Virus record (IMG/VR): IMGVR_UViG_2778261356_000007
DNA length: 4,832 bases
Origin: a virus
Taxonomy: Duplodnaviria > Heunggongvirae > Uroviricota > Caudoviricetes
Reading direction: 5' to 3' (one strand)
Each line of letters opens with the position of its first letter. Positions within the stretch are counted from its first letter, which is position 1. The translations under genes were made by a program, and so were the position numbers. Positions 978 to 4,832 of this stretch are shown one piece after another. The notes beneath the pieces were generated by a model that saw only the letters and a program-made list of their open reading frames with translations, had not been told where the DNA came from and did no database searches.

Positions 978-1003
978 AAAAGCCCTGTTAGCGCAGGGCT
1001 TTT
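978..1003 (-). terminator. Hairpin AAAAGCCCTG-n6-CAGGGCTTTT overlapping the peptidase stop codon; likely intrinsic terminator of the HTH-peptidase operon
   Basis: Perfect 10-bp inverted repeat (978-987 / 994-1003) with 6-nt loop. GC core GCCCTG/CAGGGC is flanked by A4 and T4, so it is symmetric; on the minus strand the T-run is followed by AGGGACGG. Confidence 0.45.
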
Positions 1004-1478
1004 ACATATAAAAATCGAACGACATCTGTTGTGTTCTCACGCCAATTGTTTCCAGTACGATATCCGCAAATGTATCTGCCTGCCATTCTGCATCCTCAAT
1101 ACGAGTAGGTTCTTTAACTGAAAAGTGTAAAACTGCTTTGTGTCCAAGAAGCAAATGACCTAGCTCGTGGAAGATAACAGCAAGTGCATGCTCTTCCCCA
1201 AGGCAAGCATTCACATATATTTTATTGGGAACCGTAATTGTTAGAGAAGCGGGGTCACAATGTCCGATAGTTAGATCATACGTCAGAGCCTCCCACTCTT
1301 TGTCGGTCCTGACGTCAAGAGTAACCCCATAAATTGACAGGCTTTCAAAGAACATATCATAACGCTTTCTTTTGCGCTTTGAGGCTGTAAGACCAATAGC
1401 ATTACAGAAGTTTATAGCTCTGTAGGCTATTTCTTCTTCTTGCATCGGTGACACCCTGTTACCTCTCATTTGATACAT
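1002..1478 (-). CDS. ImmA/IrrE-family (COG2856, peptidase M78-like) zinc metallopeptidase, 158 aa
   Basis: Track ORF. Contains FHELGHLLLGH, i.e. HEXXH at residues 104-108 (nt 1169..1155) with further His at 113 and 118, the signature of ImmA/IrrE-type metallopeptidases. ATG 1478 is preceded by GAGGGG with a 5-nt spacer and lies 2 nt after the stop of the upstream HTH gene. Family call is by motif and gene context only; no HMM run. Confidence 0.8.
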   Translation of the reverse strand: MYQMRGNRVSPMQEEEIAYRAINFCNAIGLTASKRKRKRYDMFFESLSIYGVTLDVRTDKEWEALTYDLTIGHCDPASLTITVPNKIYVNACLGEEHALAVIFHELGHLLLGHKAVLHFSVKEPTRIEDAEWQADTFADIVLETIGVRTQQMSFDFYM

Positions 1479-1480
1479 AA

Positions 1481-1840
1481 TTACCCCTCATTGTTATTAA
1501 TCTTTTGCAATAAATCTGCAAAACTCTTTAGCTGTTCCGGCGTAAACTGCGACTTAGCGAATCCCGCTACAAGCATTTTCTGTTGCTGAGACAAACCGTT
1601 TACTGGAACTGAGTCATTCGCAACTGCCGCTAACTCCTGTAACCCTTCAATTTCTACACCTTTGGCCTTGAAGTAAGAATCAATCATCTTAACCCACTTC
1701 AGAGGTATTTTTTTGCTACCAGTTTCTAAACCGCTAAGAAACGCTGGCGTAGTGCCCAGTTCTTGAGACATAGTCAGAAGAGTACTGTCAGTATCGATCC
1801 TCGCTTTTCTAACGGCCTTACCGAATTCAGTGAGTGCCAT
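1481..1840 (-). CDS. XRE/Cro-C1-family helix-turn-helix DNA-binding protein, 119 aa, with about 50-aa C-terminal extension
   Basis: Track ORF. N-terminal segment FGKAVRKARIDTDSTLLTMSQELGTTPAFLSGLETGSKKIPLKWVKMI is a classic HTH_3 pattern. ATG 1840 is preceded by GAGG (8-nt spacer). Stop TAA 1483..1481 is 2 nt from the peptidase start. Confidence 0.8.
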   Translation of the reverse strand: MALTEFGKAVRKARIDTDSTLLTMSQELGTTPAFLSGLETGSKKIPLKWVKMIDSYFKAKGVEIEGLQELAAVANDSVPVNGLSQQQKMLVAGFAKSQFTPEQLKSFADLLQKINNNEG

Positions 1841-1993
1841 GATTTTATCCTCAATTTGTTGATTTAGCAGACTTGCCTAACGCAAGCCTGATGGGCGCTT
1901 AAATTCTAATTCCTAAAATTTACCATATATGAAAGCAAAGTAAACCTTTTTAGTTAAAAAAATCTCCTTTAAGGGAATTTTTTTCACAAAAAG
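1841..1993 (-). promoter_or_regulatory. AT-rich intergenic region expected to hold the cassette's own promoter and operator(s); elements not resolved
   Basis: The hok terminator lies immediately upstream on the minus strand, so the HTH-peptidase pair needs its own promoter here. Only weak -35/-10 candidates and short AT-rich palindromes (e.g. TTTTTAgtTAAAAA around 1946-1959) were seen; no assignment made. Confidence 0.25.
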
Positions 1994-2018
1994 AACAAAA
2001 CCCGCCGAAGCGGGTTAA
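1981..2018 (-). terminator. Rho-independent terminator of the hok mRNA
   Basis: Same CCCGC-cgaa-GCGGG hairpin; on the minus strand it is followed by TTTTGTTCTTTTTGTG. Plus-strand function is unlikely because the hairpin is followed by TTAAGTG. Confidence 0.6.
1994..2016. repeat. 23-bp exact direct repeat, copy 2 (aacaaaacccgccgaagcgggtt)
   Basis: Identical to 646-668. Confidence 0.9.
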
Positions 2019-2084
2019 GTGCGGGTGCGTTGAGGATGCCTGACACATCAGAGGTGGCGAGGGATTTCTCCCCCGCCAGGTCTC

Positions 2085-2240
2085 TTACTCCTCAGGTTCG
2101 TAAGCTGTGAAGACAGCGACCTCCGTCTGGCCGGTTCGGATTCGTACCTCGCAGAGGTCTTTCCTCGTTACCAGTGCCGTCACAATGACGGTTAAACAGA
2201 TGACGATCAGGGCGATTAGCATCGCCTTTTGCTGCTTCAT
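2085..2240 (-). CDS. hokD: Hok/Gef-family type I toxin, 51 aa (HokD/RelF-like)
   Basis: C-terminal 51 codons of track ORF 2085..2297: MKQQKAMLIALIVICLTVIVTALVTRKDLCEVRIRTGQTEVAVFTAYEPEE. From memory this matches E. coli HokD (RelF) and is very close to HokC/Gef; not verified by search. ATG 2240 is preceded by AGGAG with a 9-nt spacer. Confidence 0.85.
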   Translation of the reverse strand: MKQQKAMLIALIVICLTVIVTALVTRKDLCEVRIRTGQTEVAVFTAYEPEE

Positions 2241-2297
2241 AGCCTGCTGCTCCTTGCCTTTCGGCGCATAAGAGGCTAATCTAAGTGTGCAAGTCAT
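2085..2297 (-). CDS. mok: Mok-like in-frame N-terminally extended reading frame overlapping hok (70 aa)
   Basis: Track ORF starting at ATG 2297 (MTCTLRLASYAPKGKEQQA-MKQQ…), preceded by GAGG with an 8-nt spacer. The extension resembles the MokC arrangement recalled from E. coli, where Mok is an in-frame upstream extension of Hok. Confidence 0.55.
   Translation of the reverse strand: MTCTLRLASYAPKGKEQQAMKQQKAMLIALIVICLTVIVTALVTRKDLCEVRIRTGQTEVAVFTAYEPEE
2254..2282 (+). promoter_or_regulatory. Candidate sigma70 promoter of a Sok-like antisense RNA (TTGCCT -17 bp- TAATCT)
   Basis: -35 TTGCCT at 2254-2259, 17-bp spacer, -10 TAATCT at 2277-2282, on the strand opposite hok and inside the mok/hok 5' coding region, where Sok promoters sit in hok/sok loci. 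Confidence 0.4.
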
Positions 2298-2362
2298 AGA
2301 TATGGCCTCAGATTAATGTTAAGCGTCCTGCAAGACGCATAATGTTAACTGGGGCTTTTCTC
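2289..2362 (+). ncRNA. sok: Candidate Sok-like antisense RNA (about 70 nt)
   Basis: Predicted start just downstream of the promoter above. The transcript would be antisense to the mok start codon and SD (2297-2309), contain hairpin GCGTC-ctgcaa-GACGC (2323-2338) flanked by the repeated TAATGTTAA, and end in the T-rich stretch 2355-2363 (CTTTTCTCT). Ends are approximate. Confidence 0.35.
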
Positions 2363-2416
2363 TGTCTGCCTTACGTCGGCATGCCCGAGGCAGACAGCCT
2401 CAAGCACCCGCAGCAA

Positions 2417-2530: not shown

Positions 2531-3046
2531 TCATCGTAAAATATTCTCCTCGTTTATCAGTCCGTTTCGCTTCAGGTAGTCCATCGCCTTATCCGGTAAT
2601 TTGCAGTCCGGCTTCGCTTTTTTCAGTTGGCTGACCAGCCGTTTAACCCACATTGCTAATTCGCTAACCTGATTGCCGGATGCTGGTGGATTGTCGGCTT
2701 TACCCAGAATGGCAGCACAGCAGGCCTCTCTGAGCACCCAGTCAACAGCATCCTTCCATGCTCCTGTTTCGACTGGCGGATTCTCACGCTTTACCTGTTC
2801 ATAAAAGCGCACAGCTTTAACCAGTCCTTCTGATGTCACCGGGACTGGCGGGCCGATGAATAAGGCCTGAATTTCATAGTTCGGCCTGTCGTTACAATCC
2901 TCTTTTGTCGGTACATATTTCCAGTCACCAGCCCACAGCTTCCCCTGAAAGTCTGTAACGTCTTTTTTCACGTAGCGATATCGCCATGCAACTGGTTTTG
3001 CCTGCCCTGCCGTTTCATGCCCTTCCTGATAATTAATCTCGCTCAT
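2531..3046 (-). CDS. Hypothetical phage protein, 171 aa
   Basis: Track ORF with protein-like composition. ATG 3046..3044 overlaps the TGA stop of the upstream 58-aa ORF (ATGA overlap). No family recognised with confidence. Confidence 0.7.
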   Translation of the reverse strand: MSEINYQEGHETAGQAKPVAWRYRYVKKDVTDFQGKLWAGDWKYVPTKEDCNDRPNYEIQALFIGPPVPVTSEGLVKAVRFYEQVKRENPPVETGAWKDAVDWVLREACCAAILGKADNPPASGNQVSELAMWVKRLVSQLKKAKPDCKLPDKAMDYLKRNGLINEENILR

Positions 3047-3219
3047 TCATCGCCCCACTCATCACAATATGCTTCGACCGGAGTTTTTCCTGCTTCATAG
3101 TCATCACGCCATGCTTCAGCATCGGCGGCACTTCCACCACGTAACTCTGCATAGTCCATTAACAGTTCATGCCATTCTTCAAAACTGACGTTGTATTTAG
3201 TTGAACCAAAATCAGCCAT
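3043..3219 (-). CDS. Small acidic protein, 58 aa (not in the supplied ORF track)
   Basis: Manual translation: MADFGSTKYNVSFEEWHELLMDYAELRGGSAADAEAWRDDYEAGKTPVEAYCDEWGDE. ATG 3219..3217 overlaps the stop of the upstream 60-aa gene (ATGGCTGA), and its TGA 3045..3043 overlaps the ATG of the 171-aa gene, so it is translationally coupled on both sides. Confidence 0.5.
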   Translation of the reverse strand: MADFGSTKYNVSFEEWHELLMDYAELRGGSAADAEAWRDDYEAGKTPVEAYCDEWGDE

Positions 3220-3394
3220 TTTGTTCTTCCTCTTCGTCTTTTATTTCGTGATATGAGTAATTGCAGTAGTTAAAGAAAATTTCTTTTGCTTCGTCATGAA
3301 TTTCATCAGGTGTTGCGTCATCGTCCACTTCGAATACATCCTCAAAATCTCCACCGGCTATTCCCGTTTCAATAATTATTTTGAACTTTCGCAT
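3212..3394 (-). CDS. Small highly acidic protein, 60 aa
   Basis: Track ORF MRKFKIIIETGIAGGDFEDVFEVDDDATPDEIHDEAKEIFFNYCNYSYHEIKDEEEEQNG, roughly one third D/E. ATG at 3394. Gene and upstream intergenic region are visibly AT-richer than flanking genes. Confidence 0.55.
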   Translation of the reverse strand: MRKFKIIIETGIAGGDFEDVFEVDDDATPDEIHDEAKEIFFNYCNYSYHEIKDEEEEQNG

Positions 3395-3541
3395 TTCACT
3401 ACCGCCCTGCCGGGCGGTCTCCTGATGTTCTGAGGGTGCAGGAATCCCTCCGGTTAAGGATTAAATTTTATTTACAGTGCTGATTTTAATTATTCAGTTC
3501 TGGATTATGCTTTCTCTTTCACCTGCCGTAGTTCCTGGTAA

Positions 3542-3847
3542 TTAATTTCGCTCACTGGTTGCCTCCTGGAAAATAACTGCATGCCCCAGTTTCTCCGCCA
3601 GTGCCAGCTCTGCCTTAGCGCCTGCCGACCGCTGCCAGCCTTTCAGCATATAAACCGCATCCACACAACGAATCATTGCCATCCAAATATCCATGTAATG
3701 TGGCTGAGTCAGCCCGTCCGGAAGTACTGCGGGATTTAATACGGTATGCCCTTCCTGTTTCAGTGCTTCTTCCGCCTTGTGAAACGCCTCACGGTTGAAA
3801 TTTTCATATCCCGTCATCGGACCGGCGATATAAATTCTCACCCTCAC
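3542..3847 (-). CDS. DUF4406-family protein (nucleoside 2-deoxyribosyltransferase-like fold), 101 aa
   Basis: Track ORF with N-terminus MRVRIYIAGPMTGYENFNREAFHKAEEALKQEGH, matching the IAGPM(T/S)G N-terminal signature I recall for DUF4406 proteins common in enterobacterial prophages. GTG start 3847 overlaps the upstream stop (GTGA). Confidence 0.7.
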   Translation of the reverse strand: MRVRIYIAGPMTGYENFNREAFHKAEEALKQEGHTVLNPAVLPDGLTQPHYMDIWMAMIRCVDAVYMLKGWQRSAGAKAELALAEKLGHAVIFQEATSERN

Positions 3848-4125
3848 GCCTGAACCCTCCTGTCGAAATAAACGTAGTTATTCACTGCGCCCAACTTCAT
3901 CCCAAACTTTTCGGCAATTTCCCGTCGGGGTACGCCACGCTGATGCAGTTGCCGCGCCAGCTCAATATCACGCTGTGAACATTTGGCTGACTGGTGATAA
4001 TCACCCCGTAACATCATGCAGATACCCAGTTCCCGCGCTTTCGTCCTGACGGCAGCCCCACTACGGCCAATCAGACTGCCGATGCTTTCGACTGTCATCG
4101 TTCCCGCACACTGCCGGAGTATCAT
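3844..4125 (-). CDS. Small DNA-binding protein with two predicted HTH motifs (about 93 aa; start ambiguous)
   Basis: Track ORF 3844..4248, trimmed because its first about 41 codons overlap the upstream gene and are W/R-rich. ATG 4125..4123 (MILRQCAGTMTVESIG…) has a GGCGG-like SD; ATG 4098 is an alternative. HTH-like segments: TVESIGSLIGRSGAAVRTKAREL and VPRREIAEKFGMKLGAVNNYV. Confidence 0.55.
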   Translation of the reverse strand: MILRQCAGTMTVESIGSLIGRSGAAVRTKARELGICMMLRGDYHQSAKCSQRDIELARQLHQRGVPRREIAEKFGMKLGAVNNYVYFDRRVQA

Positions 4126-4157
4126 AATTTCCGCCCAGCGCCACTTCTTCCAGCCAC

Positions 4158-4832
4158 TCACCGCAGCAGCTCTCTGGTGGCGGTAATATCCCGGAGAATA
4201 TCCCTGTGTTTGTTCAGTTCCCGCAGCGCGGCGCAGACACGCTCCCACTTCTGAACCTGACCTTTTGCCCGGCGCAGCTCGCGGTTAGCCACATGCAGCG
4301 ATGGTAGAATCAGGTCATCTGCTTTCGTTTCGGTGACCGATGGCTGTAACTTCACAATGTCTTCCACGATTTCTGTTTTCATTTCTTCCTGTGTCGTCGT
4401 TTCCCGGACTGGTAACGCAACACCTGCTGGCTGAGGAAAGGCTTTACCATCTGTTTCCGCTACGGATGCAGCTTCCGGCTCTGCCGGTAAATCAGCGCCC
4501 GGTATGCAGTAACGAAATTTACCGCCCTGATTCACGCGAATCAGACGCCCTTTGCTGATTGCCATGGCCAGCGATGAATTCGCCCGGCGGGAGGTAATCC
4601 CGAACATAAGTGCCAGCTCATCCGCCGTTTGTGGGCCATGTTGTTCAATCGCCTCAGTCAGCATTTGCGCTGTCACTTTCGGTACCGGTGACACTGGTTC
4701 ACTTTCACCTGCCTGAGTCAGCCACCACATCGACCCCTTGTTATCCGCTTCACCGCGGCGCTTCAGTTTCCACAGTTCGTTGACCGCATCTTCACGGCTG
4801 ATTCCAAGGCGGGCCGCCACTACCTGTGAAGA
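4158..4832 (-). CDS. Phage early-region protein with predicted winged-helix/HTH segments, partial (N-terminus beyond right window edge); possibly replication-associated
   Basis: Track ORF 4158..4820; the frame stays open through 4832 (…SSQV upstream of the track's GTG), so the true start is probably outside the window. HTH-like segments [19 protein letters not shown] and [32 protein letters not shown]; coiled-coil-like C-terminus. Function is a guess. Confidence 0.65.

Follow-up and report, generated by a model that had tools for sequence, protein, structure and literature searches.

Among described DNA mimics and anti-defence proteins, T7 Ocr (gp0.3), T7 gp5.9, T4 Arn, ArdA, and lambda Gam are small or compact, early-expressed, rich in aspartate and glutamate, and have an isoelectric point (pI) of about 4. 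Some of them are encoded beside phage exonuclease genes. Specifically, T7 gene 5.9 precedes gene 6, and lambda gam lies beside the red genes. A different set is formed by the exo-xis genes of lambda and Shiga toxin (Stx) phages (Orf60a, Orf61, Orf63, Orf73, and Ea22), which are small, early, and mosaic, and influence lysogenisation and induction (PMC8614690, PMC3824215). Both sets are relevant to the two tandem genes described here, which encode proteins of 60 and 58 amino acids (aa). They lie in a 4,832-nucleotide (nt) stretch of Caudoviricetes DNA (IMG/VR record IMGVR_UViG_2778261356_000007), hereafter the window, which matches a portion of an Stx2a-converting lambdoid prophage from Escherichia coli O113:H21 FWSEC0010 at 100% identity. 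In size, early position, and composition, the pair resembles the mimics named above, and it shares with the exo-xis genes the setting of a highly mosaic lambdoid region.

A first interpretation made from the letters alone (the sequence-only reading) regarded the pair as candidate DNA-mimic or anti-defence genes on an acquired moron with its own promoter. The analysis presented here identifies the two proteins as catalogued members of uncharacterised phage families, which are reasonable candidates for an anti-defence screen and unsurprising in themselves. Together with a leader, their genes appear to form a mobile early-gene cassette of ~510 bp. Only charge links the pair to known DNA mimics or anti-defence proteins.

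Two acidic genes of uncharacterised phage families

The 60-aa protein contains 19 aspartate and glutamate residues (31.7%) and five lysine and arginine residues, resulting in a net charge of −14 and a pI of 4.06. The 58-aa protein has 16 acidic residues (27.6%), a net charge of −12, and a pI of 4.05. In the neighbouring proteins of the window, the acidic fraction is 7.5–14%. The initial description of tandem, highly acidic, translationally coupled mini-proteins is borne out: the two genes share an overlap of exactly 8 nt (ATGGCTGA, 3212–3219), and the 58-aa gene is joined to the following 171-aa gene by ATGA (3043–3046). The AT-richness that had been ascribed to the 60-aa gene and the region upstream of it stands for the gene, which has 36.6% GC compared with 49–56% in the flanking genes. 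The upstream gap of 147 bp is only mildly AT-rich, with 44.9% GC versus 49.0% for the window, and has an AT-rich centre and a GC-rich hairpin beside the ATG. The 58-aa gene has 45.2% GC. The GC content at third codon positions (GC3) is 0.33 and 0.31 in the 60-aa and 58-aa genes, respectively, compared with 0.51–0.57 in the flanking genes, so the AT-richness is not merely a consequence of acidic codons.

Both reading frames are annotated in RefSeq, the first as WP_001224672.1 ("DUF7167 family protein") and the second as WP_000753060.1 ("hypothetical protein"). The ratio of nonsynonymous to synonymous substitution rates (dN/dS) between intact copies is 0.04–0.2 for both genes, indicating purifying selection, and both proteins are conserved at the protein level across distant phages. 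Annotation, selection, and distant conservation together establish them as real genes rather than chance open reading frames (ORFs). Identical proteins are found on at least 1000 contigs each, and the pair is present in 1909 of the 5426 complete E. coli genomes (~35%), in up to four places per genome. A decaying Qin-type prophage of E. coli C11 (L014, 4001–4352) carries internal stops in both small genes, and the neighbouring genes are pseudogenes too. Evidently, the cassette is dispensable to the host once the prophage is defective. The two genes are also independent of each other, as each is found alone in unrelated phages; in addition, E. coli 28RC1 has the 60-aa gene without the 58-aa gene. 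Their separate occurrence and the strong acidity of both make an obligate heterodimer of the two proteins unlikely.

Judged by its profile matches, the 60-aa protein is a full-length member of the Pfam family DUF7167 (domain of unknown function; PF23768). Residues 2–53 align to model positions 1–60 (E 2.4e-14, 53.6 bits, cut-off 24.4), and the protein also matches phrog_1997 (E 2.1e-30). An exhaustive profile search for DUF7167 yielded 284 clusters at 50% identity, nearly all of them stand-alone proteins of 50–60 aa. The family is acidic, with a length of about 55 aa and a median net charge of −11 in 120 representatives. Its motif is M(R/K)K(I/F)K V.(I/V)ET G..G ... (F/I)EV(E/D)DDAT(E/D)EEIEE.A(R/K)(E/D)..FN..(I/C).(Y/W)(G/S)(W/Y).E(V/I), followed by an acidic tail. 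The 60-aa protein has in common with the family its length, the IET...EV(E/D)DDAT(E/D)EEI...FN..(C/I).(Y/W)G(W/Y) pattern, and the acidic tail, which is unusually long in the E. coli subgroup and there holds the Shine-Dalgarno (SD) sequence of the next gene. Cys44 is kept in only 29% of the members, which makes a catalytic or metal site unlikely. Tandem duplication of the unit in a few members is a hint of dimerisation. The AlphaFold2 (AF2) model of the 60-aa protein has a mean predicted local distance difference test (pLDDT) score of 80.5 and consists of a β-hairpin (residues 2–10 and 15–23) packed on a helix (29–44), a probable third strand, and a floppy acidic tail.

Carriers of DUF7167 include the Jersey-like siphoviruses of Salmonella and Klebsiella, phAPEC8-like myoviruses, Enterococcus Kochikohdavirus, and lambdoid prophages, besides phages of Pseudomonas, Acinetobacter, Lactococcus, and Streptomyces. 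The family spans Gram-negative and Gram-positive hosts. Many "long forms" of 87–166 aa exist in the databases (P0001, P0003, P0004, P0165, P0168, and P0150 represent these forms and the 127-aa DUF1187 protein described below). They are translated through the conserved leader (…LTGGISAPSEHQEA.RKGGSE-MRKFK…) or joined to a preceding Ea22-like or DUF7446 gene, and appear to be read-through, gene-calling, or frameshift artefacts rather than true domain fusions. Possibly genuine architectures are seen among P0248, P0206, P0245, and P0183 (L021, 2813–3358); they include DUF7167 combined with a YopX domain, tandem double DUF7167 proteins, and a long form of the 58-aa domain described below.

The 58-aa protein matches phrog_519 over its whole length (residues 1–58, E 4.5e-23, 83 bits). 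PHROG 519 is a family of unknown function that includes CBA120 gp142/orf183 and homologues from Vi01. The window protein shares the tryptophan, GGSAADA, and GKTP motifs of this family but spans only columns 76–137 of the 143-column profile. Some PHROG 519 members have an extra N-terminal part, which seems to result from read-through out of a DUF1187 gene upstream. Likewise, the apparent fusion of the 58-aa domain to DUF1187 in a 127-aa protein runs through seemingly translated intergenic sequence and appears to be a gene-calling or frameshift artefact. A 181-aa protein, in which the 58-aa domain carries a 120-aa extension, is possibly genuine; its gene adjoins those for RNase_T, YfdP, DUF2303, and single-stranded DNA-binding protein (SSB). 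The 58-aa protein belongs to no Pfam family, and a permissive Pfam scan of all 36 members of its alignment revealed no consistent weak family. With tblastn, 202 phage records were retrieved, mostly Ackermannviridae (CBA120 gp142, Vi01, Menlow) with 55–60% identity. Conserved are an aromatic core and two loops, FxEWH ... GGSAADAxAW(R)xDYExGKTP ... DEWG, with W16, L20, A24, D33, A36, W37, G44, D53, and G56 invariant in the alignment. The AF2 model is a three-helix bundle with a pLDDT of 87.8.

A mobile cassette, probably without a promoter of its own

The window represents the nin-equivalent (nin-like) part of the delayed-early rightward operon, a stretch that separates the replication genes from the Q antiterminator. 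Every gene of the window lies on the minus strand, and gene orientation is uniform from the cro-like gene through to Q. The cassette proposed here would comprise the leader, the DUF7167 gene, and the PHROG 519 gene. In most E. coli genomes, it sits within a Rac/Qin-type prophage, in the nin-like region. The leftward early region of ArgO145 and of several Stx2a phages contains the pair with the identical 8-nt overlap, placed between Ea22-like genes. The 171-aa gene is a variable downstream partner. Its place is taken by an ead/Ea22-like gene in ArgO145, and elsewhere it is often a pseudogene.

The borders of the cassette are marked by a 32-nt direct repeat (Table 1), both copies of which encode (M/V)SEINYQE. 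The downstream copy covers the start of the 171-aa gene. On the upstream side lies a stub of an Ead/Ea22-type gene start, which overlaps the stop codon of the DUF4406 gene. A database protein that matches Pfam Ead_Ea22, P0168, begins with MSEINYQALREVAERA. The 171-aa protein has no match to the Ead_Ea22 hidden Markov model (HMM; PF13935); in this protein and in the stub, the first seven to eight residues (MSEINYQE) alone match Ea22-type N-termini such as that of P0168. This similarity marks a recombination joint and is no proof of membership in the Ea22 family. The cassette may have entered the nin-like stretch by recombination between Ead/Ea22-type gene starts.

Between the stub and the DUF7167 gene lies a 111-nt leader, which is common to every E. 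coli copy examined. The AT-rich 5' half of the leader matches the leader and ribosome-binding site (RBS) of ArgO145 gp16, an extra small gene that is missing from the window. The 147-bp gap is a recombination scar, composed of the Ea22-type stub, the shared leader, and the hairpin, and not a promoter region. No sigma-70-like promoter or intrinsic terminator consensus was detected between positions 2000 and 4000. A promoter in the gap was rejected for lack of a consensus, and the leader is conserved and otherwise explained; the sole -10-like hexamer, TAAAAT, is broken by a 2-nt deletion in JJ1886 and 28RC1. An intrinsic terminator was rejected as well, as the hairpin has no U-tract. Of the proposed moron with its own promoter, the acquired character remains, in line with the deviating composition and the mobility of the cassette. 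The autonomous promoter is not supported, and the next gene is coupled through ATGA. Gene order and the absence of signals suggest that the cassette depends on read-through from early promoters.

Two observations concern related loci. In 28RC1 (L015, 2338–3832), an opposite-strand pair encoding a Ser/Thr protein kinase and a PP2C phosphatase replaces the 58-aa and 171-aa genes directly downstream of DUF7167. Possibly, a phage-exclusion module was inserted there, using the same mosaic joint. Furthermore, ~1.1 kb of PP818812.1, "Actinobacillus phage vB_Apl-pPE4" (Actinobacillus pleuropneumoniae), is 92% identical to the E. coli prophage region, both small genes included. The host assignment or purity of this record looks doubtful.

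A probable split ribosome-binding site

Split RBSs, in which a hairpin separates the SD sequence from the start codon, were shown experimentally for the T4 genes 38 and 25 (PMC3014915). Their SD sequences lie 22 and 27 nt from the AUG and are brought to within 5 and 11 nt by the intervening hairpin (PMC3014915). The start of the DUF7167 gene matches this definition and is a probable site of the SD-hairpin-AUG type. Here, the hairpin is predicted to bring an SD located 24 nt away to ~6 nt from the ATG. As with T4, close relatives keep the arrangement and distant ones lack it: CAGGAG, an 18-nt hairpin, 6 nt, and the ATG follow one another in all E. coli copies, whereas homologues outside E. coli have an ordinary SD 6–9 nt from the ATG and no hairpin. 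Unlike the T4 sites, to which it is unrelated in sequence, the arrangement in the window is a prediction only.

The hairpin has a folding energy of -15.5 to -16.6 kcal/mol and a z-score of about -3 (-3.4 for -16.6). It is the local hairpin alone that is significant, as folding of the whole gap is not (z -1.4). The stem is retained in five E. coli contexts (the window, ArgO145, JJ1886, C11, and 28RC1). ArgO145, JJ1886, and C11 have the stem of the window copy unchanged but another loop. Among the copies, the loop reads GGCA or GAAA and the closing pair varies between A-U and G.U; 28RC1 carries two C>U changes that keep G.U pairs. This tolerance of wobble pairs points to a structure at the RNA level. 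A boxB/nut-like function of the GAAA-loop hairpin was considered and rejected, since the element is far from the early promoters and the copy in the window has a GGCA loop.

Translation of the downstream genes would follow by re-initiation. An SD-like GAGGA is located 9 nt upstream of the 58-aa ATG, within glutamate codons of the acidic DUF7167 tail, and could serve re-initiation of the 58-aa gene at ATGGCTGA. The acidic tail of the E. coli DUF7167 subgroup (3220–3240) may therefore be partly constrained at the RNA as well as the protein level. The 171-aa gene would re-initiate at ATGA.

Possible functions of the pair

The search for characterised relatives, which the sequence-only reading had suggested in the form of profile and structure-based comparisons, identified none, neither in anti-restriction or anti-defence families nor in a characterised non-defence family (PDB, Pfam, NCBIfam, and BFVD). 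Structure prediction, also suggested there, delivered two confident small folds, and no match of these folds to a solved mimic. Scans of both proteins and their neighbours against Pfam, NCBIfam, and PADLOC assigned DUF7167 to the 60-aa protein only. The two small proteins and four neighbours have no match in PADLOC-DB at E values up to 0.1; as PADLOC covers defence systems and not anti-defence proteins, this result excludes only a role as a defence component. In the EVADES anti-defence supplements, DUF7167, PF23768, DUF1187, and PF06688 are absent by name, the check being limited to names. No paper in the literature library searched mentions DUF7167 or either RefSeq accession. In the source records, the exact proteins are called "hypothetical" or "prophage protein" throughout, with no functional name among them.

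The genes near the two families are a further source of information. In Jersey-like phages, genes for an exonuclease, a gp2.5-like SSB, and a DNA polymerase are found near DUF7167, and in Enterococcus phages an exonuclease gene. The DUF7167 genes of Klebsiella and Enterococcus phages stand next to exonuclease genes or are translationally coupled to them. Other early-operon neighbours of the two families include SNF2, Dam, and PolA, as well as RNase_T, YfdP, DUF2303, and SSB.

The preferred explanation is that both products are independent, compact, strongly acidic proteins without a catalytic signature. Early in infection or induction, they would bind stoichiometrically to the basic surfaces with which proteins of the host or of rival elements contact nucleic acids. 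They could thereby act as decoys for host takeover or counter-defence; one form that this might take is DNA mimicry. This role as stoichiometric binders is put forward tentatively, as a leading possibility that falls short of being likely. Several results weigh against it. No PDB chain was matched below E 0.1 by either protein with phmmer and hmmsearch, and Foldseek against BFVD returned uncharacterised family members only; as the DNA mimics and anti-restriction proteins of solved structure are contained in these libraries, homology to any of them is excluded at the sensitivity used. The argument from neighbourhood is weak, as phage early operons consist mostly of DNA-metabolism genes anyway. 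The Ackermannviridae homologue of the 58-aa protein is encoded just downstream of the major head gene, a position that is not obviously early. Finally, the five E. coli contexts contain no double compensatory substitution in the hairpin, only wobble-compatible changes.

The location of the pair in ArgO145 and several Stx2a phages, between Ead/Ea22-like genes of the leftward early region, and the cassette borders at Ea22-type gene starts would both fit developmental modulators. Like the exo-xis proteins of lambda and Stx phages, such modulators would tune the lysis-lysogeny decision or induction via host transcription or regulators. This is considered unlikely, as each family is well represented among strictly virulent phages (Ackermannviridae, Jersey-like, phAPEC8-like, and Enterococcus Kochikohdavirus), which take no lysogeny decision. 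Furthermore, the pair is not homologous to the characterised exo-xis proteins, and lambda lacks both genes.

Equally unlikely is a purely phage-internal role, in which the proteins would be accessory factors of replication or recombination, namely acidic adaptors or chaperones for an exonuclease, SSB, or helicase, with no host target. Such a role agrees with the finding that unrelated phages repeatedly have genes for an exonuclease, SSB, SNF2 helicase, or DNA polymerase next to the two families, and the great breadth of hosts reached by DUF7167 fits a partner that is either encoded by the phage or universally conserved. However, the neighbouring DNA-metabolism genes vary from phage to phage, with no constant partner gene, and the E. 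coli prophage cassette moves between operons independently of DNA-metabolism genes.

The original proposal is more specific: one or both proteins would be DNA mimics of the Ocr/ArdA/gp5.9 type, blocking restriction-modification, RecBCD-type nucleases, or other DNA-binding defences, and encoded on a moron with its own promoter. In its favour are the net charges and pI values of about 4, with acidity being family-wide in both families, the rare tandem-duplicated DUF7167 proteins, which hint at dimers as in many mimics, and the coupling or adjacency to exonuclease genes in Klebsiella and Enterococcus phages, an arrangement reminiscent of T7 gene 5.9 and lambda gam. Since acidity alone is non-specific, no solved mimic was found to resemble either protein in sequence, profile, or fold, the families are not named in EVADES, and there is no promoter, the proposal is regarded as distinctly unlikely. 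The same improbability attaches to a more far-reaching reading. Here, DUF7167 would be a new family of nucleic-acid-mimic inhibitors in phages of Proteobacteria and Firmicutes, directed against a conserved host DNA-end or DNA-binding enzyme (a RecBCD/AddAB-type nuclease, a restriction enzyme, or a nucleoid protein). PHROG 519 would be a second, independent inhibitor, and the pair a portable two-gene counter-defence module in one third of E. coli genomes.

That the ORFs are non-functional, as chance or decaying remnants, is suggested only by the internal stops in the prophage of C11 and is effectively refuted by the low dN/dS of intact copies, conservation from Enterococcus to Pseudomonas phages, and the confident AF2 folds.

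Features of the window

Table 1. Positions of the acidic pair, the cassette elements, and neighbouring features in the window.
Feature	Position	Strand	Remarks
DUF1627 gene	4158–4820	minus	
Helix-turn-helix (HTH) protein gene	3844–4248	minus	longest ORF
DUF4406 gene	3542–3847	minus	nucleoside deoxyribosyltransferase-like
Direct repeat, upstream copy	3532–3563		32 nt; 26/32 identical, spacing 509 nt
Ead/Ea22-type gene-start stub	3505–3555	minus	translation GTG-SEINYQELRQVKEKA-stop, 16 codons
Gap between DUF4406 gene and 60-aa gene	3395–3541		147 bp
Leader accompanying DUF7167 in E. coli prophages	3395–3505	minus	111 nt; five contexts aligned
SD-like CAGGAG	3419–3424	minus	AGGAG 24 nt from ATG; 6 nt once the hairpin forms
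Predicted RNA hairpin	3401–3418	minus	ACCGCCC-GGCA-GGGCGGU; 18 nt, 7-bp GC-rich stem; ends 6 nt upstream of DUF7167 ATG
60-aa acidic protein gene	3212–3394	minus	Pfam DUF7167 / PHROG 1997
58-aa acidic protein gene	3043–3219	minus	PHROG 519
Direct repeat, downstream copy	3023–3054		32 nt; covers start of 171-aa gene (MSEINYQE...)
171-aa gene	2531–3046	minus	PHROG 660 (unknown function); start MSEINYQE
hokD/sok type I toxin-antitoxin locus, complete	2085–2409		Hok/Gef Pfam match; Rfam sok 113 bits, threshold 59
isrK match, sub-threshold	1995–2076		Rfam, 27 bits versus 50
27-nt direct repeat	642–668 and 1990–2016		96% identical, 1348 nt apart
Xre-HTH/ImmA (IrrE) pair	1002–1840		42–43% GC

The HTH protein gene, in its longest form, encodes 134 aa from a GTG start and overlaps the DUF1627 gene by 91 nt. 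RefSeq has a shorter form of 93 aa (~3844–4125), which probably reflects the true start.

Past the 171-aa gene, the order continues with hokD/sok, directly downstream of it, and the Xre-HTH/ImmA pair; DUF968 and Q follow further along the genome. The sub-threshold match to isrK, an Hfq-binding small RNA, overlaps the terminator hairpin downstream of hokD and may be due to the hairpin alone. Each copy of the 27-nt repeat contains a GC-rich hairpin, AACCCGC-CGAA/TTCG-GCGGGTT, followed by a T-run on the minus strand, and both copies look like intrinsic terminators. They flank the AT-richer Xre-HTH/ImmA pair, which is more promising than the acidic pair as a candidate for an inserted autonomous module.

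Significance

As matters stand, the pair is ordinary among the many small uncharacterised early phage genes. The useful outcome is negative and anatomical, comprising the lack of a link to known mimics and of an own promoter, the mosaic borders at Ea22-type starts, and the probable split RBS. Should either protein prove to be a counter-defence or host-takeover inhibitor, a Pfam DUF of ~284 clusters, whose phages infect very different hosts, would gain a function. The finding would likewise account for a cassette carried by ~35% of complete E. coli genomes, including Stx-converting prophages, in which early accessory genes can influence induction and toxin release.

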